Shown piece after piece: positions 32,832-42,973 of a DNA stretch of 64,000 bases. Below the pieces are notes generated by a model, which saw only the letters and a program-made list of their open reading frames with translations, made no database searches and had not been told where the DNA came from. Each line of letters starts with the position of its first letter. Positions within the stretch are counted from its first letter, which is position 1. This DNA comes from Bacteroidota bacterium (GTDB lineage Bacteria > Bacteroidota > Bacteroidia > Bacteroidales > NBLH01): assembly GCA_025361565.1 (NCBI GenBank), contig JANYKN010000004.1, positions 2,012 to 66,011 on the forward strand. Reading direction: 5' to 3'. A program made the translations under genes and the position numbers.

Positions 32832-33716
32832 CTATTTGCTGAATGTAATTTTGGTTGTAACTTTATTCGAATCAACCACTTCATTAACAACCATTACAAA
32901 TTTATTTTCAGTTAGGCTTTCGAAGTGAATTGTATCTTTTCTGTTAACTCCATTTGGTTCAAGTAAAAGCATATTTAATTCAGAATTGAATTCCCATTTT
33001 CCAATTTGTGGCTCAGGTGTAAATCCTTTTCGCTCAAAGGTATGATCTTCATTAAAAGTCAATCTGGCATTGGCTTTCAGATTTTTAAGTGTTTGAATTA
33101 TATTGATGCTATCCATATGATTCCTTGGTAAATTATCCTGATAATCAGATAGTTGCCATTGTCCAATTATAATTTCCGAATCATTGTTTTCTGATAAACT
33201 GGTATATACAAAGTAGAAAATTACTGCTAAAGCAATAGCGGCTATTGCATATATAATTGGTTTTGAAATAGTTTCCGGTGATTGATTCTTTTTTGAGGAA
33301 TTGGATTTTTTTACTGATTTTTTTCCGCCCGTTAATTCTTCATATGCATCAATTAATACTTCATATGAAGCTTCGAAAGTGTCTTCATACGCCGCAACCC
33401 AGCTAAAAGTGTAAAAGAAATGATCAGTATAAAGATTTGACTCAATTTTTTCAAGCACAAATGGAATAATTCCTATCTGATTATCAAGTGCATACTCAAG
33501 TGATTGAATCATTTCTTTACTAGAAACCGAATTTTTATCGATGATTAAAAGCAAGATCTTAGAATCTTCAACAGTTGCTTTTAGCGAATCATTTTCTTCC
33601 TGCTTATAATCCCTTGGCGATACCCAGCATGAAATACCATCGGATTCCAGTTTTGAAACCAATTTTTTTACAAGTGATTTGTTTTCTTTTTGATAAACCA
33701 AACAAAGGTCTTTCAT
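32832..33716 (-). CDS. TIR-domain protein with one TM helix and a C-terminal lipocalin-like extracytoplasmic domain
   Basis: 294 aa. Residues 1-~125 fit the TIR_2 pattern (LCLVYQKENKSLVKKLVSKLESDGISCWVSPRDY...LLLIIDKNSVSSKEMIQSLEYAL...IIPFVLE). A basic stretch, GGKKSVKKSNSSKKN, precedes the TM segment IIYAIAAIALAVIFYFVYT (aa 153-172). The C-terminus (IIGQWQLSD...IGKWEF...LTENKFV) is paralogous to the neighbouring lipoprotein. Confidence 0.7.
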   Translation of the reverse strand: MKDLCLVYQKENKSLVKKLVSKLESDGISCWVSPRDYKQEENDSLKATVEDSKILLLIIDKNSVSSKEMIQSLEYALDNQIGIIPFVLEKIESNLYTDHFFYTFSWVAAYEDTFEASYEVLIDAYEELTGGKKSVKKSNSSKKNQSPETISKPIIYAIAAIALAVIFYFVYTSLSENNDSEIIIGQWQLSDYQDNLPRNHMDSINIIQTLKNLKANARLTFNEDHTFERKGFTPEPQIGKWEFNSELNMLLLEPNGVNRKDTIHFESLTENKFVMVVNEVVDSNKVTTKITFSK

Positions 33717-35335: not shown

Positions 35336-37393
35336 ATGAGTTTTTTATATCCATCCTTTTTTTGGGCTTTGTTTTTAATTGCGATTCCGGTAATTATCCA
35401 TCTTTTTAATTTCCGTGTATATAAAACTGTATATTTCAGCAATATTAAGTTTTTGCAGGATATTAAGGATGTAAGCGATTCAAAATCAAAAATTAAACAT
35501 TTAATAGTTCTTTTATTACGAATACTTGCCATAGTTGCACTTACCATTGCTTTTGCAGTCCCTTTTGTACCAGTTCTAAAAACTAAAGATTCATTCAAGG
35601 AGCGAATAGTTACCATTTATCTGGATAATTCGTATAGTATGAATGCTGGAAGTTTGCATGGAAACTTATTTGACGCTGCAAAAGAAAGAGCGCGAAAAAT
35701 TGTTTCTTCATATGATAACCGACAAAAGTTTTTTTTCCTTGATAATGATATGGAATCAAAGCACCGCATTATTACCAATAAACAGCAAATAACTGAATTT
35801 ATCAATAATAGTGTGCTTTCGGGTGCGGTTTCTGATTTTTCCAAGCTTATTCAATTTCAAAGAAATTTTATGAAACAGGAAAATGAAATCAAACAATATC
35901 ACCATTTATTTTACATGATTTCGGATTTTCAGAAAGTAGTTTCGGATTTTCGGAATTTTGAATCAGATTCCAATACTTTTTTTTATTTATTACCCCTCGC
36001 AACCAATTCGACCAATAATATTTATATCGACTCGTGCTGGTTTTCATCACCGGGCCGAAACTTGAATAAAAATGAAAATTTGAATGTAAGGGTTGTAAAC
36101 AAAGGAAAGGAAGAATATCAGGATATTCCTATTCGGTTATTTGTAAACGGAAGACAAAAAGCGATAAATAATTTTCAAATAGATGCAAATAGTTCTAAAA
36201 CTGTGGTCTTGAATTATTCAAACACCGAAAGTGGAATTTTGCCTTCTTCGCTTGAAATCACTGATTATCCGATTACTTATGACAACAAATTCTATTTCAG
36301 TTACCAAATTAATAAACAAACTTCGATTTTAATTATCAATAAATCGGAAAACAAATATCTGAATGCTTTGTATAAAAGCGATTCATCCTTTGTGCTTCAA
36401 AATAGTAATACAGGAAGTTTGCGAACTTCCGAATTTCCAAATTATCAGGTTATTATACTTGATGAGCTTGATGGTTTTTCATCCGGATTAATTGGAGAAC
36501 TTAAACGTTTTGTTTCAAATGGTGGTGTAATGGTTTGTATTCCAGGCGAAAATACAAACTTGATTGAGCTTAATAATTTACTTTCTTCAGTTAACGCTAA
36601 CCTGATGAACGGAATTGTAAAACAAGTTACACAGCTTGAAAAGATTAATTATGAGCATTTTATTTATAAGGATGTTTTTATTAAAAATGAAGATAAATTA
36701 ATTCTTCCCGAAATAAAAAGCTATTTTCCGGTGAATTTAAGTACACAATCAGTAAGCAATATTCTTTTAAGTTCCTTATCTGGCAAACCTTTGCTTATAC
36801 AAACCAATTTTGATAAAGGTAAAGTGTATACTTTTACGTTTCCATTGGCAATTGAAAACAGCGATTTTGTTGTTCATTCTCTCTTTGTTCCAACCTTGTA
36901 TAATATTGCTGCTTTTAGTCAAACCTATGAGAGATTGTTTTATACCATTGGTAATGATAATATTATAGATTTAAACCTGAAACCCACCACAGGCGATAAA
37001 AGCTTTCATTTGATTGATTTGGAAGGAAAAACAGATTTTATTCCGCAATTTTCGGGAATTGGTGAGCAAGGTATCCGTTTAAACTTGATGAAAAACATCG
37101 TATTTGCCGATAATTATTTATTGAAAGTGAACAGCAACAATTTAAAATGTCTTTCTTTTAATTACAATAGAAAGGAATCAGATCTGGATTTTTATAAAAA
37201 TGATGAAATAGAAAAGCTAATTGAAGACTACAAACTTTTGAATTTTAGTATTTTATCTGCAAATTTGAATGAATTGCAAACCCAAATTGAAGATTCATTA
37301 AAAGAAAGAAAAGACTACTGGAAATGGTTTATTTCATTTGCTTTTATTTTTCTTATTTCTGAGATATTCATTCTTAGATTATGGAAAGATTAG
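35336..37393 (+). CDS. BatA N-terminal double-TM domain protein (aerotolerance-related family), with C-terminal TM anchor
   Basis: 685 aa with an N-terminal MSFLYPSFFWALFLIAIPVIIHLFNFR typical of BatA_N/TIGR02226, and a C-terminal helix WFISFAFIFLISEIFIL. Confidence 0.6.
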   Translation: MSFLYPSFFWALFLIAIPVIIHLFNFRVYKTVYFSNIKFLQDIKDVSDSKSKIKHLIVLLLRILAIVALTIAFAVPFVPVLKTKDSFKERIVTIYLDNSYSMNAGSLHGNLFDAAKERARKIVSSYDNRQKFFFLDNDMESKHRIITNKQQITEFINNSVLSGAVSDFSKLIQFQRNFMKQENEIKQYHHLFYMISDFQKVVSDFRNFESDSNTFFYLLPLATNSTNNIYIDSCWFSSPGRNLNKNENLNVRVVNKGKEEYQDIPIRLFVNGRQKAINNFQIDANSSKTVVLNYSNTESGILPSSLEITDYPITYDNKFYFSYQINKQTSILIINKSENKYLNALYKSDSSFVLQNSNTGSLRTSEFPNYQVIILDELDGFSSGLIGELKRFVSNGGVMVCIPGENTNLIELNNLLSSVNANLMNGIVKQVTQLEKINYEHFIYKDVFIKNEDKLILPEIKSYFPVNLSTQSVSNILLSSLSGKPLLIQTNFDKGKVYTFTFPLAIENSDFVVHSLFVPTLYNIAAFSQTYERLFYTIGNDNIIDLNLKPTTGDKSFHLIDLEGKTDFIPQFSGIGEQGIRLNLMKNIVFADNYLLKVNSNNLKCLSFNYNRKESDLDFYKNDEIEKLIEDYKLLNFSILSANLNELQTQIEDSLKERKDYWKWFISFAFIFLISEIFILRLWKD

Positions 37394-37695
37394 AAAGCAA
37401 AAGTAAAAATTGAAATAAAGGTACAGCGACTGCTATATTAACAATCCAACAACTGAATTCAAAAACTTATTTCTGAGATAATTTTCTTATGAAATGCCAT
37501 CTGTCATTTAAATTCTGAGAGTGATAAATCTTATTTTCAATATGTATTTCCAATAAATTAGTAATAATATACAATTAATGTATATTTATGCAAAAGATTT
37601 TTATTGATTTATTTTGTATTAGTATCTATATATCAATAATATATAAAGTTATTTTGTTAGTTTAACACAAATTTAATCATTATTTAATATAAATA

Positions 37696-37728
37696 TTTGC
37701 ATAAATTAAAATTATGCATTTATATTTG
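37696..37728 (+). promoter_or_regulatory. Bacteroidota-type promoter candidate (TTTG -21 nt- TATATTTG) with an embedded inverted repeat TGCATAA-N7-TTATGCA
   Basis: TTTG lies at 37696-37699 and TAnnTTTG at 37721-37728. The palindrome arms are at 37698-37704 and 37712-37718. The site is about 29 nt upstream of leader ORF 1. Confidence 0.35.
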
Positions 37729-37756
37729 TCCTATAAATAATTTAAGATTTTTAGGT

Positions 37757-37868
37757 ATGAAATCCATTTTCCAAAACCCGTATAGACGCTTTATTAAATT
37801 TATTACTTAGGAAAGTGGATTTGTAATTATATTATAAAGCTTTCCAATATTTGGAAAGCTTTTTTTTT
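37757..37868 (+). promoter_or_regulatory. Candidate arginine attenuator unit 1: 17-codon leader ORF (MKSIFQNPYRRFIKFIT) plus terminator
   Basis: The ORF spans 37757-37810 with AGA CGC at 37784-37789. The terminator stem is 37836-37845/37853-37862 (10 bp), followed by T8. Alternative pairings are 37760-37772 with 37810-37822 (13 bp, one GU), and GGAAAG 37810-37815 with CTTTCC 37840-37845. Confidence 0.5.
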
Positions 37869-37894
37869 GAATAATAACCAATAAATTAAAGATA

Positions 37895-38021
37895 ATGAAC
37901 AGATATTATAAAAACCCGTGCCGCAGATGTTTGCCTGGACTTTAATTTCGGTAGTTTAATATTATTGTTTTGATATCAAAATAATATAGGCCTACCGAGT
38001 ATTTCAGTAGGTTTTTGTTTT
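37895..38021 (+). promoter_or_regulatory. Candidate arginine attenuator unit 2: 16-codon leader ORF (MNRYYKNPCRRCLPGL) plus terminator
   Basis: The ORF spans 37895-37945 with CGC AGA at 37922-37927. The terminator is CCTAC..GTAGG (37991-37999/38003-38011), followed by TTTTTGTTTTT. The anti-terminator TTCGGTAG (37947-37954) pairs with CTACCGAG (37992-37999). Confidence 0.5.
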
Positions 38022-38052
38022 TAATAGATTTGTTACAATTAAAATTGAAAAA

Positions 38053-38616
38053 ATGATTGATACTATAATTGATACAACTTTGAAAGTAATAGTAATTGAA
38101 GCAGGTCCAGAACATGGAAAATATGCTGAGCAAATTGTTGAAATGATCGAAACAGCTGCACGGATAAGAGGTACAGGAATAGCAAAACGTGATCCACGCT
38201 ATATTGAAAAGAAAATGACTGAAAATAAAGCAATCATTGCACTTAATGGATCAAAACCTGTTGGTTTTTGTTACATCGAAACCTGGGATCATGGCAAATA
38301 TGTAGCAAATTCTGGTTTAATAGTTGATCCGGAGTTTCGCCAGTCCGGTTTGGCCAAAATGATTAAAGCAAAAGCATTTAATTTATCAAGAAAACGATTT
38401 CCCGAAGCTAAAATTTTTGGTTTAACTACCAGTTTGCCAGTGATGAAAATCAATTCGGAATTGGGATATCGTCCGGTTACTTTTTCTGAGCTTCCGAAAG
38501 AAGATGCTTTTTGGAAAGGATGCAGCAGCTGTGTTAACTACGATATTCTTCAACGAACAAGTCAGAAAATGTGTCTGTGCACAGGAATGCTTTATGAACC
38601 AAATAATAAAAAATAA
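38053..38616 (+). CDS. GNAT-family N-acyltransferase of the arginine cluster (putative glutamate N-acyltransferase)
   Basis: 187 aa with a GNAT core (PEFRQSGLAKMIKAKAF). From memory, its position at the head of the arg cluster matches other Bacteroidota. Confidence 0.65.
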   Translation: MIDTIIDTTLKVIVIEAGPEHGKYAEQIVEMIETAARIRGTGIAKRDPRYIEKKMTENKAIIALNGSKPVGFCYIETWDHGKYVANSGLIVDPEFRQSGLAKMIKAKAFNLSRKRFPEAKIFGLTTSLPVMKINSELGYRPVTFSELPKEDAFWKGCSSCVNYDILQRTSQKMCLCTGMLYEPNNKK

Positions 38617-38629
38617 ATAATATTTTTTT

Positions 38630-38716
38630 AACCCTGCCAGTGTTCTGATAATAAATATATTGTAAATTGTAAATTTGCAATTATATTTTGGTATCCGCGC
38701 TGGCAGGGTTTTTTAT
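38630..38716 (+). terminator. Long-loop hairpin with T-tail between the GNAT gene and argC (terminator or attenuator)
   Basis: AACCCTGCCAG (38630-38640) pairs with CTGGCAGGGTT (38700-38710), followed by TTTTATT. The 59-nt AT-rich interior has further self-complementarity (AAATATATTG/CAATTATATTT). Confidence 0.5.
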
Positions 38717-38895
38717 TGAAAGGAACAAATGTCTGAATTTACTTTAACAAGTTTATAAATCGAATTATATTTCGCATTTTTGACAATTGTTTTTTCTATG
38801 CTTTTTTGTCTTTCTAAAAGCTCAAAATAAACATTAATTTTAAACCATGGCATTGTATTCACTATGAAATCAATAGCTTTTTTCAAAAAACAAAT

Positions 38896-39861
38896 ATGAT
38901 TAATATTGGAATAATTGGAGGTGCCGGCTATACTGCGGGTGAGTTGATTAGAATACTGCTATGGCATCCAATTGCAAAAATTCAGTTTATTCAAAGTAAT
39001 AGCCATTCTGGCGAGGACATTACTTCCATTCACCGCGACTTAATAGGTGATACAGATTTAAAATTTAGTGAACCAGATTTTAATGCCGTCGATGTTATTT
39101 TTTTATGTTCCGGTCATGGTATGTCTAAAGTTTTTATGGAAACCCATCCGCTCCCTGAGCATTTGAAAGTAATAGATTTAAGTACCGATTTCAGGCAAAT
39201 TTCAGAGGATAATGATTTTATTTATGGTTTGCCTGAATTGAATAGAGAAGATATTGAATCGGCAGAAAGAATAGCCAACCCTGGATGTTTTGCCACAGCC
39301 ATTGAACTGGCTCTTTTGCCTTTGGCAGAACATCAAATGCTTAATAATGATATACATGTAAATGCAATTACTGGTTCTACCGGAGCTGGCCAAAAACCGA
39401 GTTCAACTTCACATTTTAGCTGGAAAAACAACAATATTGCAGTTTATAAACCATTTGAACATCAGCATTTAGCTGAAATTGTTCAAAGCATGAAGCAACT
39501 GCAACCTAGTTTTAATCATGAACTTAATTTTATCCCGGTAAGAGGAAATTTTAGCAGGGGGATTATGGCAACCGCATATACAGAATGCAATTGGAGCCAG
39601 GACGAAATTACAGAAAACTACATACAATATTATCAAGATCATCCATTTGTAACGATTGTAAATGAAATTCTGGATGTGAAGCAAGTTGTAAATACAAACA
39701 AATGTTTGTTGTTTCCTTCAAAATATGGATCAAAAATTATGATAATTTCGGTAATTGACAACCTTTTAAAAGGTGCATCGGGGCAGGCTGTTCAGAATAT
39801 GAACCTGATGTTTGGCCTTGATGAAACAACGGGTTTGAATTTAAAACCTGTTGCATTTTAG
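38896..39861 (+). CDS. argC: N-acyl-gamma-glutamyl-phosphate reductase
   Basis: 321 aa with IGIIGGAGYTAGELIR and the catalytic Cys motif ANPGCFATA. Confidence 0.92.
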   Translation: MINIGIIGGAGYTAGELIRILLWHPIAKIQFIQSNSHSGEDITSIHRDLIGDTDLKFSEPDFNAVDVIFLCSGHGMSKVFMETHPLPEHLKVIDLSTDFRQISEDNDFIYGLPELNREDIESAERIANPGCFATAIELALLPLAEHQMLNNDIHVNAITGSTGAGQKPSSTSHFSWKNNNIAVYKPFEHQHLAEIVQSMKQLQPSFNHELNFIPVRGNFSRGIMATAYTECNWSQDEITENYIQYYQDHPFVTIVNEILDVKQVVNTNKCLLFPSKYGSKIMIISVIDNLLKGASGQAVQNMNLMFGLDETTGLNLKPVAF

Positions 39862-39921: not shown

Positions 39922-41049
39922 ATGAAATTATTTGATGTTTACAGTCAGTATGATGTAGATTTAAGAAAAGCCAAAGGCGCAATTCTTACAGACGTTGAAG
40001 GAACAGACTATCTTGATTTTTATGGTGGACATGGAGTAATTTCTATTGGGCATGCACATCCAAGATATATCGATGCTATTGAAAATCAATTACATCAAAT
40101 TGCATTTTATACCAATGTGATACAAAATAGTTTGCAGGTTGAATTGGCTGAAAAGCTTGGAAAACTTTCAGGATATACTGATTATAACTTATTTCTGGGT
40201 AATTCAGGAGCAGAGGCAGTTGAAAATGCTCTAAAAGTGGCTAGTTTCAAAACCGGGAAAAATAAAATAATTGCAATTAAAGGTTCGTTCCATGGCAGGT
40301 GCAGTGGATCAATAGCTATAACTGATAATCCTGTCATTCAATCACCTTTTAATCAAGTGCATAATGTCAGTTTTATAGCCTTAAACGATTTTGAAGCACT
40401 TGAAAAGGAATTTAAGGATAAAGATGTTGCCGGAATTATTATTGAAGGTATCCAGGGAGTTGGAGGAGTATATGAAGGAACACCTGAATTTTTGAAAGCA
40501 GTAAGGGAAATCTGTACAAAGACTGGAGCAATGATGATTATGGATGAAATTCAGTCTGGATATGGCCGAACTGGTAAATTTTTTGCACATCAGTGGGCTG
40601 ATGTTAAACCTGATATAATCACTGTTGCAAAAGGAATGGGAAATGGGTTTCCAATATCCGGAGTTTTGATTGCACCAAATATTGAAGCAAAAAAAGGAAT
40701 GCTGGGAACCACTTTTGGAGGAAACCATTTGGCTTGTGCATCAGCCATTGCTGTTCTGGATGTTATGAAGGATGAGAACCTAATGGAAAATGCACTTCAA
40801 ATGGGCGAATATCTTAAAAAAGAACTTAAACAAATGGATTTTATTAAAGATATTCGTGGAAGAGGGTTGATGATTGGTATTGAAATGGAAAATGCAGCAG
40901 AATTTAGGAAACAATTGATACTTGAAGAAATGATATTTACTGGTTTTTCAGGACCAAATACTATTCGATTATTACCTCCTTTAAATATTACCATGAAGGA
41001 AGCTAAAAAATTTATAAAAGCATTGATATCAACAACCACAACTGATTAA
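39922..41049 (+). CDS. argD: Class III aminotransferase, acetyl/succinyl-ornithine aminotransferase
   Basis: 375 aa with YLDFYGGHGVISIGHAHP, MIMDEIQSGYGRTGKFFA and the PLP-Lys motif TVAKGMGNGFP. Confidence 0.85.
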   Translation: MKLFDVYSQYDVDLRKAKGAILTDVEGTDYLDFYGGHGVISIGHAHPRYIDAIENQLHQIAFYTNVIQNSLQVELAEKLGKLSGYTDYNLFLGNSGAEAVENALKVASFKTGKNKIIAIKGSFHGRCSGSIAITDNPVIQSPFNQVHNVSFIALNDFEALEKEFKDKDVAGIIIEGIQGVGGVYEGTPEFLKAVREICTKTGAMMIMDEIQSGYGRTGKFFAHQWADVKPDIITVAKGMGNGFPISGVLIAPNIEAKKGMLGTTFGGNHLACASAIAVLDVMKDENLMENALQMGEYLKKELKQMDFIKDIRGRGLMIGIEMENAAEFRKQLILEEMIFTGFSGPNTIRLLPPLNITMKEAKKFIKALISTTTTD

Positions 41050-41052
41050 AAT

Positions 41053-41826
41053 ATGGATGATTTGACCATTGTTAAGGTTGGAGGTAATTTAATCGACAAT
41101 GCAGCTGAGCTTGATTCATTTTTAAGTGCTTTTGCCAGTATTCAAGGAAAAGCACTCTTGGTTCATGGAGGTGGTAAATTAGCCACCAATATGGCTACCA
41201 GGCTTGGAATTGAAACTAAAATGGTAAACGGTCGTCGTATTACTGATGCTGAAAACCTTAAACTGGTAACCATGGTTTATGCAGGATTTGTCAATAAAAA
41301 TATAGTTGCTTTATTGCAGTCGAAAGGAAAAAATGCGATGGGTATTTGTGGAAGTGATTTGAATATCATCAAATCTGCAAAACGGAAACATCCTACCTTG
41401 GATTTTGGATTTGTAGGGGATATTACCGAAGTGAATGCCATTGCTTTATCAGATTTAATTGAAAAAAATATTACGCTCGTTATTGCGCCAATTACTCATG
41501 ATGGAAAAGGGCAATTGTTAAATACCAATGCTGATTCCATTGTAACAGAAATTGCTATTGTACTTTCGAAAATATATAAGGTAAAATTGATTTATAGTTT
41601 TGAAAAGGCTGGTGTGCTGCGAAGCCTTGAAAATGAGATGGATGTGATTCCAACTTTATCCGAAGCCGAAATTATAGAAATGCAGGAGAGAGGTTCCATT
41701 CATACTGGAATGATGCCTAAAACAGATAATGCCATTAAAGCCATGAAAAATGGTGTAGTGGAAGTAATTATTGGGAATTTGGTTGATATTCAAAAGAATA
41801 ACTTACCTGGAACAAGAATAGTATAA
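41053..41826 (+). CDS. argB: Acetylglutamate kinase
   Basis: 257 aa with IVKVGGNLID, LVHGGG and NTNADS. It starts 3 nt after the argD stop. Confidence 0.9.
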   Translation: MDDLTIVKVGGNLIDNAAELDSFLSAFASIQGKALLVHGGGKLATNMATRLGIETKMVNGRRITDAENLKLVTMVYAGFVNKNIVALLQSKGKNAMGICGSDLNIIKSAKRKHPTLDFGFVGDITEVNAIALSDLIEKNITLVIAPITHDGKGQLLNTNADSIVTEIAIVLSKIYKVKLIYSFEKAGVLRSLENEMDVIPTLSEAEIIEMQERGSIHTGMMPKTDNAIKAMKNGVVEVIIGNLVDIQKNNLPGTRIV

Positions 41827-41905: not shown

Positions 41906-42973
41906 ATGGAAAAACTCGAAAAATATATAAATTTGGCAACAGATACATTGAAACAACTAATTGCAATCCCTTCCTACAGTAAAGAAGAAAAGCAAGTTGC
42001 TGATTTAATGGAGAATATTTTAATCAATCAAGGTTATAAAACCAATCGCAAAAAAAACAATGTTTGGGTTTATAGCAAAGATTATATGGAAGGAAGACCA
42101 ACTTTATTAATGAATTCTCATTTAGACACTGTAAAAGCCAGCGATAAATGGACGAAAGATCCATTTAATCCCTTGATAGAAGATGAGAAATTATATGGCC
42201 TTGGAAGTAATGATGCCGGTGGTTGTTTGGTTTCGTTAATGGCTACTTTTTTAGCATTGGAACAGGAAAATCAATCCTATAACCGTGTTTTTGTAGCTTC
42301 AGCCGAAGAAGAGAACTCTGGATTTGATGGTTTTGAATGTGTACAATCTGAATTGGGCAAACTTGATGTTGGAATTGTTGGTGAGCCAACACTTATGGAC
42401 ATGGCCATTGCCGAAAAAGGCTTGATGGTATTAGATTGCGAAGCTGAAGGTAAATTAGGTCATGCAGCTAGAAATGAAGGGATTAATGCCATCAGTATTG
42501 CTGTTGAAGATATTAATTGGTTGCAAACGTACAAATTTGAAAAAGAATCTGAAATTCTTGGCCAAGTTAAGTTGACCGTAACACAAATAGACGCTGGTCA
42601 CCAGCACAATGTAGTTCCTGCAAGTTGTAAATTTGTGGTAGATGTAAGAACCAATGAGCATTACAGCAATGAAGTGGCTTATGAATTCATCAAAAATAAT
42701 CTAAAAAGCAAGGTTACTGCCAGATCTTTCAGGTTAAATTCTTCAGGTATTGAAATGGATCATCCATTAATTAAAGCCGGACTTGAAATGGGAATGAATT
42801 GGTATGGATCGCCAACTACATCAGATCAGGCTATTATGATTGGTTTTCCTACGTTGAAGCTTGGCCCTGGCGATTCTGCACGATCTCATACTGCTGATGA
42901 GTTTATTTACCTAGATGAAATTAAAAATGGAATTGAAAAATATTTTAATTTGTTAAATGGATTGAAGTTTTAA
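41906..42973 (+). CDS. argE: M20 family deacylase (acetylornithine deacetylase / ArgE-DapE-like)
   Basis: 355 aa with LMNSHLDTVKA, LYGLGSNDAGG and ASAEEENSG. The gene sits in the arg cluster. Confidence 0.75.
   Translation: MEKLEKYINLATDTLKQLIAIPSYSKEEKQVADLMENILINQGYKTNRKKNNVWVYSKDYMEGRPTLLMNSHLDTVKASDKWTKDPFNPLIEDEKLYGLGSNDAGGCLVSLMATFLALEQENQSYNRVFVASAEEENSGFDGFECVQSELGKLDVGIVGEPTLMDMAIAEKGLMVLDCEAEGKLGHAARNEGINAISIAVEDINWLQTYKFEKESEILGQVKLTVTQIDAGHQHNVVPASCKFVVDVRTNEHYSNEVAYEFIKNNLKSKVTARSFRLNSSGIEMDHPLIKAGLEMGMNWYGSPTTSDQAIMIGFPTLKLGPGDSARSHTADEFIYLDEIKNGIEKYFNLLNGLKF

Follow-up and report, generated by a model that had tools for sequence, protein, structure and literature searches.

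Probable tandem arginine-codon attenuators upstream of an arginine biosynthesis cluster in Bacteroidota

We analyzed a stretch of 64,000 nucleotides (nt) from a Bacteroidota bacterium (assembly GCA_025361565.1, contig JANYKN010000004.1, positions 2,012 to 66,011; hereafter the window), and in particular the region that precedes its arginine biosynthesis genes. In the 659-bp gap between the end of a BatA-like open reading frame (ORF) at 37393 and the start of a GNAT acyltransferase gene at 38053, two short leader ORFs with adjacent arginine codons follow one another, each with its own intrinsic terminator. The most probable reading of this region is that it holds tandem ribosome-mediated transcription attenuators, which are keyed to arginine and control the GNAT and arg genes. 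A preliminary description of this DNA had proposed such a duplicate Arg leader-peptide attenuation, and the proposal was supported by conservation in related loci, by enrichment of Arg leaders across the phylum, and by folding under ribosome constraints.

The two mini-ORFs with Arg-Arg at codons 10 and 11 were confirmed, and the T-tailed hairpin reported after each of them was found to be present and more stable than shuffled sequences (Table 1). The whole 291-nt leader also folded better than shuffled sequence (z = -3.0). The window has 31.6% G+C, and in its long ORFs arginine accounts for 2.8% of the codons, with AGA making up 39% and CGC 9% of the Arg codons. When all ATG mini-ORFs of 10 to 40 amino acids on both strands of the 64 kb were collected (n = 932), 21 contained Arg-Arg, and just 2 of the 21 had a terminator within 110 nt. 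These two are leaders 1 and 2, which are adjacent to each other and directly 5' of the arginine genes. Both contain AAAACCCGT at an equal offset (+16) from the ATG. The identical N7-P8-x-R10-R11 register and the shared 9-mer that had been reported for them do hold within the window, but neither is conserved, both being specific to it. The further suggestion that the units look like paralogous duplicates needs correction: they are not simple duplicates, as their terminator and anti-terminator sequences differ. Unit 1 pairs GGAAAG with CUUUCC (type A), unit 2 pairs UCGGUAG with CUACCGA (type B), and both types also occur in relatives.

The pairings that had been described for the two units were borne out by folding. 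In unit 1, the helix between 37760-37772 and 37810-37822 occurred in the minimum-free-energy fold, and the competing GGAAAG/CUUUCC pairing was recovered within an anti-terminator in which GGAAAGU (37810-37816) pairs with GCUUUCC (37839-37845), stacked on an inner hairpin (37820-37827 with 37831-37838). The TAG stop codon of leader 1 shares its final base with the 5' arm of this anti-terminator, and the anti-terminator formed in the stalled-ribosome state under constrained folding. In unit 2, the segment that follows the stop codon paired with the left arm of the terminator as claimed (-17.1 kcal/mol), with UCGGUAG... (37948-37958) and ...CUACCGA (37987-37998) enclosing an inner hairpin (37963-37972 with 37977-37986). 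Here the 5' arm begins 3 nt past the stop codon. Anti-terminator 2 was dominant in both the free and the Arg-stalled states and was abolished when a ribosome was placed at the stop codon; correspondingly, the equilibrium probability of terminator 2 was 0.15 to 0.28, versus 0.97 with the ribosome at the stop.

Three ribosome states were modeled by barring pairing within a 28-nt footprint, and for a kinetic model the transcripts were cut just before the 3' arm of the terminator, which represents the moment of decision. For 12 units (the 2 of the window and 10 from relatives), the mean pairing probability of the left terminator arm was 0.62 to 0.97 with an Arg-stalled ribosome versus 0.00 to 0.47 with a ribosome at the stop codon. 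The corresponding values were 0.82 and 0.68 versus 0.29 for unit 1 of the window and 0.79 versus 0.32 for unit 2. For both units, then, a stalled ribosome sequesters the left arm and a ribosome at the stop frees it, the outcome that the constrained folding proposed in the preliminary description had been meant to reveal. The position of the arms fits this behavior. Within the window's clade, the segment that pairs best with the left arm begins between -8 and +2 nt from the leader stop codon in every unit (12 of 12), and in the full set 12 of 21 units fall within -10 to +6 nt, versus 2.9 expected under a uniform position. Because the anti-terminator arm lies at the stop codon, a terminating ribosome masks it, and a ribosome stalled approximately 20 nt upstream leaves it free. 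The units of Labilibaculum have longer ORFs, and their arm lies 30 to 46 nt before the stop codon, in the classical 1:2 / 2:3 / 3:4 layout.

Related loci were used to determine which parts of the two units are conserved. We fetched 80 genome loci, 11 close metagenomic or metagenome-assembled genome (MAG) loci, and 80 further metagenome loci (individual loci are given below by numbers preceded by L). GNAT is highly conserved in Bacteroidota, with its closest named matches in Bacteroidales MAGs, Labilibaculum, and Marinifilum, and the orthologous loci encode a GNAT that is 70 to 90% identical and share the BatA...GNAT-argC-argD-argB synteny. A metagenome scan for closer relatives returned just loci with 57 to 70% identity, which were used as an independent replication set; the close clade is small. 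In close relatives, one to four leader units occur in series with a terminator after each. The locus with 90% GNAT identity (L088/L089) has both units, MKFILHNPRDRRSSIKFS and MKTIKYTYPYRRFFAGL, and its promoter, its TAGGAAAGTG, and its terminators match those of the window. L081 has a single unit, MISNFKREVRRTLFIFH, and L082 has a mini-ORF that is orthologous to leader 1, MRAILQNPYRHNLKMIV. Leaders of type B, homologous to leader 2, are found in L088, L084 to L087, L090, and L171; apart from that of L088 they have the form M..Y(T/A)xRR(R)FFPxIIGCR, with the stop codon inside TTCGGTAG and a terminator of AAGCCTACCGA...TCAGTAGGCTT. Three or four serial units are present in Labilibaculum (four species or MAGs) and in L091.

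What is kept in these units is the decoding of arginine and the architecture around it. Aligned at the nucleotide level, the four closest loci (the window, L088, L082, and L081) have invariant promoter boxes, an invariant TAGGAAAGTG in anti-terminator 1, and invariant terminator arms; terminator 1 is conserved in all three relatives, and the coding part of the leader drifts. The Arg run begins between codons 8 and 13, most commonly at codon 10, and the flanking residues vary. The Arg codons themselves vary synonymously, as AGA-CGC, CGC-AGG, AGG-CGT, CGT-CGT-CGT, CGC-CGC-CGC, or CGA-CGA-AGA. This synonymous variation, together with the varying flanks, indicates selection on decoding and not on RNA sequence. 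In an alignment of 8 relatives, the terminator 2 stem is 100% paired and the anti-terminator 2 helix 91% paired. The search for related leaders that had been advised therefore gave a mixed outcome: Arg-run mini-ORFs and hairpins are conserved, but the Asn-Pro-x-Arg-Arg motif is not, being confined to the window, L088, and L082, and covariation in the stems was not significant. Past the TAA of leader 2 (37946-37954), the frame runs on as TTT CGG TAG. An equivalent CGG-TAG ends the ORF in L084 to L086 and L171, as TGG-TAG does in L090, and L088 reads TTT TAG. The later stop codon of the relatives suggests that the window and L088 gained a stop 6 to 9 nt earlier while the anti-terminator arm did not move; the downstream TAG would correspond to the ancestral stop codon inside the sequence at which the relatives end.

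Transcription of the two units would start from the promoter that had been described as TTTG, 21 nt, and a second box at 37696-37728. This promoter is present and is the sole match to TTTG-N17-23-TAnnTTTG within 37533-38055, and the window, L088, L082, and L081 do not differ in either box or in the flanking ATTTGCATA.

The occurrence of Arg leaders was then counted across the phylum as ATG mini-ORFs of 8 to 45 codons with Arg-Arg, no more than 350 nt upstream of GNAT. In the genome loci, 49 of 78 had such an ORF on the sense strand, compared to 24 on the antisense strand and 11.7 in shuffled sequences (maximum, 18); for Arg-Arg-Arg the numbers were 22, 8, and 1.1. The independent metagenome loci gave a similar picture, with Arg-Arg in 31 of 75 on the sense strand, 13 on the antisense strand, and 8.4 in shuffles, and with 19, 6, and 0.6 for Arg-Arg-Arg. 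Arg-Arg was the sole clearly enriched doublet, Pro-Pro and Val-Val showing a weaker sense-strand excess. Several loci excluded by the mini-ORF filter nonetheless have ORFs with Arg-rich ends that use a different start codon or have a different length. The units of the window apparently belong to a family of Arg-run leaders that is widespread in Bacteroidota and seems to be unannotated.

From these results we propose the following mechanism. Transcription would begin near 37733 and pass two serial attenuators before it reaches the GNAT and arg genes. In each unit a ribosome would translate a leader of 16 to 17 codons, in which codons 10 and 11 are one common AGA and one rare CGC, read by different transfer RNAs (tRNAs). 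With charged tRNA-Arg plentiful, the ribosome would reach the stop codon and cover GGAAAGU in unit 1 or UCGGUAG in unit 2; the covered segment could not pair with the left arm, the terminator hairpin and U tract would form, and RNA polymerase would stop. With tRNA-Arg uncharged, the ribosome would halt about 20 nt earlier, on the Arg codons, and the free segment would pair as the anti-terminator and allow read-through. Unit 1 would use four segments (1:2, 2:3, and 3:4, as in trp), so that an untranslated transcript would form the 1:2 helix, in which the 5' arm of the anti-terminator is sequestered and the leader AUG buried, and terminate. Unit 2 would use three segments, lacking segment 1, with the anti-terminator (ON) as the default and termination needing a ribosome at the stop codon. 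With the units in series, overall read-through would be the product of the two, giving lower basal expression and a sharper response. Leader translation, its coupling to the polymerase, the response to arginine, and this multiplicative effect are what we infer from the arrangement of the elements.

Table 1. Coordinates of the leader elements and the flanking genes within the window
Feature	Position	Strand	Details
Bacteroidota-type promoter	37696-37728	+	-33 box TTTG (37696-37699) and -7 box TATATTTG (37721-37728), 21 nt apart
Leader ORF 1	37757-37810	+	Encodes MKSIFQNPYRRFIKFIT-stop
Segment 1 of unit 1	37760-37772	+	13-bp 1:2 helix with 37810-37822, -14.5 kcal/mol
Arg codons 10-11 of leader 1	37784-37789	+	AGA CGC
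Anti-terminator 1 (predicted)	37810-37845	+	-9.5 kcal/mol, z = -3.2
Intrinsic terminator 1	37836-37868	+	12-bp stem, 37836-37847 with 37851-37862, -13.5 kcal/mol, z = -4.3, then T run
Leader ORF 2	37895-37945	+	Encodes MNRYYKNPCRRCLPGL-stop
Arg codons 10-11 of leader 2	37922-37927	+	CGC AGA
Anti-terminator 2 (predicted)	37948-37998	+	-17.1 kcal/mol, z = -4.7
Intrinsic terminator 2	37990-38022	+	Stem 37990-38012, -7.6 kcal/mol, z = -3.5, then TTTTTGTTTTT
BatA-like gene	35336-37393		Upstream neighbor of the leader region
GNAT acyltransferase	38053-38616	+	Pfam Acetyltransf_1; first regulated gene
argC	38896-39861	+	Pfam match
argD-like class-III aminotransferase	39922-41049	+	Pfam match
argB	41053-41826	+	Pfam match
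M20 deacylase, argE-like	41906-42973	+	Pfam match

Several results weigh against tandem arginine attenuation. Just two Arg codons are present per leader. With -7.6 kcal/mol and an interrupted T tract, terminator 2 is weak. In unit 1, the terminator (-13.5 kcal/mol) beats the anti-terminator (-9.5 kcal/mol) at equilibrium in every ribosome state, and because the anti-terminator never wins at equilibrium, unit 1 must act kinetically. In L082/L083, with 85% GNAT identity, unit 1 reads Arg-His and unit 2 is degenerate and without Arg-Arg, although the promoter and terminator 1 are nonetheless retained. Covariation was not significant in the 8-sequence type-B alignment, as 134 of 500 and 122 of 500 shuffles reached the observed score; scores no better than those of shuffles are explained by the near invariance of the type-B helix arms. 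Outside the window's clade, a strict terminator follows just 8 of 94 sense-strand Arg-Arg mini-ORFs. Finally, a hairpin at 38630-38709, between GNAT and argC, could halt transcripts before argC and so uncouple argC to argE from a leader-controlled GNAT. Two broader models were rejected. A purely thermodynamic switch was discarded for unit 1, since the terminator wins in most full-length units whatever the mask, and was kept for unit 2. A terminator model for the whole phylum was discarded because strict terminators are so rare, and the proposed mechanism is restricted to the window's clade; for the same reason, the phylum-wide enrichment supports the sensing of Arg by a leader and not necessarily by means of a terminator.

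Control by the repressor ArgR was considered next to control by the leaders. That no argR gene is adjacent, as had been stated, was borne out: none was found in the 64-kb window or in the fetched stretches of the close-relative loci. In seven other loci an ArgR ORF lies directly upstream of GNAT, and all seven are without an Arg leader there; in the six of these seven that were inspected further, an Arg leader was also absent upstream of argR. The lack of a leader in ArgR-adjacent loci points to a replacement of one regulator by the other. An imperfect palindrome, TGCATAAATT/AATTATGCA, separates the -33 box of the window promoter from its -7 box (37696-37720), and the left half alone of this palindrome is invariant in relatives. 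This palindrome may be an ArgR-type operator, which would imply dual control. TGCA-rich motifs likewise fill the promoters of ArgR-led arg operons (L075, L080, L111, and L118).

If the mini-ORFs were nonfunctional, the hairpins would be plain terminators or would mark where small RNAs transcribed from the promoter at 37696-37728 end, and the arg genes would be transcribed from a downstream promoter under a repressor such as ArgR. The hairpins that L082/L083 keep without Arg-Arg, the lack of significant covariation in the type-B helices, the palindrome in the main promoter, and the TGCA-rich motifs shared with ArgR-led promoters are all compatible with this, and a TAnnTTTG-like TAGATTTG box that precedes the GNAT ATG by 20 nt (38025-38032) offers a candidate promoter. 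That box, however, has no TTTG 17 to 23 nt upstream and lacks conservation in L088, L082, and L081, and it was rejected as a promoter. Nowhere else in the window does an Arg-Arg mini-ORF stand before a terminator, Arg runs survive synonymous codon change in many lineages and show a phylum-wide enrichment that is confined to the sense strand, and plain terminators give no reason for all 12 of the clade's units to have an anti-terminator arm at the stop codon. We consider nonfunctional mini-ORFs very unlikely. Attenuators that function as supposed here might instead gauge general translation capacity, or ribosome-polymerase coupling, and not arginine specifically. With the anti-terminator of unit 2 as the default, any block of leader translation would de-attenuate that unit, and a leader with two Arg codons only would be in keeping with such a role. 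Yet strong enrichment is seen for Arg and for no other residue, the Arg run is conserved with a constant spacing to the anti-terminator, the elements are located specifically upstream of arginine biosynthesis genes, and unit 1 is predicted by folding to terminate when untranslated, which would filter out a general loss of translation. Of all the explanations weighed, this one appears the least credible.

The preliminary description had also hinted at an arrest-peptide component. In such a scheme the nascent chain, and not the slow decoding of hungry Arg codons, would be the sensor, as in the arginine attenuator peptide of fungi, TnaC, or SpeFL: the peptide would arrest the ribosome on free arginine or ornithine, the arm would be held by a ribosome arrested close to or at the stop codon, and termination would be enforced at high arginine. 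SpeFL binds ornithine through an HIRRXXH motif, and TnaC stalls at Pro-stop. Both leaders of the window have N7-P8-x-R10-R11 and the identical 9-mer, about 12 of 21 units have a Pro no more than 3 residues before the Arg run, and type-B leaders retain a Pro 3 to 4 residues after the run; beyond the clade, many leaders end in ...RRRRP-stop, and the last leader of some relatives, 44 to 46 amino acids long, has a conserved C terminus. Conversely, the Arg run is the sole part conserved across units, Asn-Pro is missing from L081, L085, L087, L090, and all four Labilibaculum units, and the register varies from codon 8 to codon 13. A spacing of about 20 nt separates the Arg codons from the anti-terminator arm that follows them, which is the classical hungry-codon geometry, and the leader peptides match no Pfam or NCBIfam family. 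The hint thus failed as to register and Asn-Pro, although Pro near the run is frequent, and we give arrest of this kind in the window little more than a slight chance. Somewhat less improbable, but still unlikely, is a wider version, in which an undescribed family of Arg-sensing leaders in Bacteroidota uses the nascent chain as a sensor of free arginine or ornithine in some branches, the Asn-Pro-x-Arg-Arg of the window being a remnant. Branches that may hold arrest peptides are the ...RRRRP-stop leaders and the leaders of 44 to 46 amino acids that end in ...ELNNKWLSLxAVALFWET-stop. Tandem attenuators that respond to the charging of tRNA-Arg remain our preferred reading of the window.

The last leader before GNAT is an ORF of 44 to 46 amino acids in L002 (2845-2985), L171 (910-1044), and L091 (1346-1486), with equivalents in L001, L003, and L004; the window is without it. 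Most copies have Arg-Arg(-Arg) near codons 10 to 12, and that of L091 has it at codons 14 and 15. The C terminus is conserved as ...(V/I)(E/D)(L/I)NN(K/R)WL(S/C)L(N/T)(A/G)V(A/C)LFWE(T/I)-stop, and since it is kept through synonymous nucleotide changes, selection appears to act on the peptide, which could be an arrest peptide or a micro-protein. At the position of unit 1, three relatives have another small, conserved ORF, MYNYLR.L...FVMSIIED(V/I)EV... (L085, 2531-2644; L090, 2558-2653; L171, 558-665), which contains a single Arg and is followed by a GCTTCCC...GGGGAGC hairpin plus a T run.

Arg leaders of a different kind were seen in Flavobacteriia. Twelve loci (L024, L037, L042, L056, L059, L064, L069 to L071, L074, L077, and L078) have a leader that ends in ...RRRRP-stop approximately 60 to 120 nt upstream of GNAT. 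Its stop codon lies in the loop of CGCCCG-UAA-GGGUG, which is followed by a conserved GGAAC-UUAGGUGAGUCC-GGUUC hairpin. This second hairpin has a 5-bp stem, GGAAC/GUUCC, and an invariant 13-nt loop, UUAGGUGAGUCCG, that contains the Shine-Dalgarno-like AGGUGA; a U tract is often absent, and the hairpin has no Rfam match. The mechanism of these leaders may differ from that of the window. Many Flavobacteriia also have a second, upstream Arg leader with the conserved N terminus M(I/N)T.KNKI(R/K)... and an end of RRR or RRRR (L056, L070, L071, L102, L123, L141, L144, L150, L161, and L166), so that serial Arg leaders are not limited to the window's clade.

The genes downstream of the leaders form a recognizable arginine cluster. 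GNAT is a putative short-form N-acyl-glutamate synthase, an assignment based on its conserved gene neighborhood: in the relatives examined, GNAT always has argC and further arg genes downstream of it. The gene order of the cluster is repeated in relatives, where the gap between GNAT and argC can be as short as 30 nt, and argC-argD-argB-argE are presumed to form the same operon as GNAT. GNAT is certainly the gene under direct leader control, and we infer that read-through also controls argC to argE. The hairpin at 38630-38709 occupies the GNAT-argC gap of the window (flanks, 38622-38722; -37.6 kcal/mol; z = -7.3). It has a long perfect stem, AACCCTGCCAG...CTGGCAGGGTT, with T7 on one flank, T6 on the other, and a TAAATTTG box in the loop, and it looks like a bidirectional terminator. 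It is also found in L088 and is missing from L082, L081, and L086. Further downstream, 5' of argC, the window, L088, and L082 share a conserved block, GAATTATATTTCGCATTTTTGACAATTG (38755-38790), of which L081 retains a part. The TTTGCAT motif of the main promoter recurs in this block, which may serve as an operator or as an internal promoter. Near the arg locus, a minus-strand ORF at 32832-33716 encodes 294 amino acids with an N-terminal TIR domain (PF13676; E value, 2e-12) and a weak DUF5004 match, and may be a defense or signaling gene.

The leaders were compared to families of known regulatory elements. In the Rfam 15 scan that had been advised, neither the whole window nor 20 related loci had a match to a known family at the gathering score. 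When the 701-nt region was searched at an E value of 10 or less, the sole leader-family match over unit 1 was a sub-threshold Phe_leader (23 bits versus 55) that covers terminator 1. The absence of a meaningful Rfam match indicates that the region is not a known leader, T-box, or riboswitch, and NCBIfam and Pfam scans assigned the leader peptides to no family. The preliminary description knew of no Arg leader attenuator in Bacteroidota. In the literature, no transcription attenuator with an Arg leader peptide was found for any bacterium, and no case of leader-peptide attenuators in series, although coverage was incomplete and a prior description is not fully excluded. Of the sequence features of ribosome-mediated attenuation, a leader ORF, a run of cognate codons, and a terminator are all present in the window, the anti-terminator being a computed structure.

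If the proposed mechanism is correct, it would mean that a whole phylum, with abundant lineages from marine, sediment, and gut habitats, gauges tRNA-Arg charging through the translation of Arg codons, often with two to four serial attenuators that apparently replace an adjacent ArgR. It would extend ribosome-mediated attenuation to a new amino acid and provide a natural case for how the stacking of attenuators shapes dynamic range. It would also supply compact arginine-responsive parts for engineering in Bacteroidota, improve the annotation of the seemingly empty regions upstream of arg clusters, and bear on how Bacteroidota ribosomes, without a Shine-Dalgarno sequence, load onto leader ORFs fast enough for coupling to RNA polymerase.

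Textbooks present arginine biosynthesis as controlled purely by a repressor (ArgR), and to our knowledge it is not counted among the classical attenuated operons (trp, his, leu, thr, phe, and ilv). The ArgR/ARG-box system has the same target, the arginine biosynthesis genes, and the palindrome in the window promoter could be its operator; it differs in that a protein repressor senses free arginine at initiation. The arginine attenuator peptide of fungi, SpeFL, and TnaC resemble the window in that an upstream ORF links the status of the arginine pathway to expression and in that both Arg and Pro are found near the regulatory site. In those systems, however, a conserved peptide binds free ligand in the exit tunnel and acts on translation or Rho, whereas in the window conservation is limited to the Arg codons, and these are accompanied by an intrinsic terminator/anti-terminator pair. 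Arg-specific T-box leaders of Firmicutes sense the charging of tRNA-Arg, and T-boxes can be arranged in tandem, as in thrZ of Bacillus subtilis. They are alike in sensing tRNA-Arg charging for read-through and in using serial attenuators to tighten control. They differ in that uncharged tRNA is bound directly, with no translation, whereas the sensor in the window would be a translating ribosome; no T-box match was found.

Closer to the window in lineage, ilvE, hisG, and tandem-aromatic leader peptides have been described in Flavobacterium psychrophilum in addition to the known Bacteroidetes trp leader, with none for Arg (PMC9723704). These leaders and the Bacteroid-trp leader (RF01692) are candidates for leader-peptide attenuation, belong to the same phylum, and lie upstream of amino-acid biosynthesis operons, but the amino acids differ. 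In Staphylococcus aureus, an arginine-sensing upstream ORF acts on translation (PMC13009471).

In architecture, the closest likeness is to the enterobacterial leaders trpL, leuL, hisL, pheL, thrL, and ilvL, in each of which a short leader ORF between the promoter and the first gene contains codons for the pathway's own amino acid and precedes an intrinsic terminator. The trpL peptide has two Trp residues at codons 10 and 11, and leuL has a run of Leu from codon 10. As in a trp-type attenuator, exclusive 1:2, 2:3, and 3:4 pairings would be set by the position of the ribosome, and the stop codon abuts segment 2. The window differs from the enterobacterial leaders in its Bacteroidota host, its -33/-7 promoter, the lack of a Shine-Dalgarno sequence, and the absence of any sequence or covariance-model similarity to them, and also in that unit 2 has three segments and is ON by default. 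Relative to known attenuators, what would be new is the amino acid sensed, arginine, and the arrangement of the units in series, with two in the window and up to four in its relatives.

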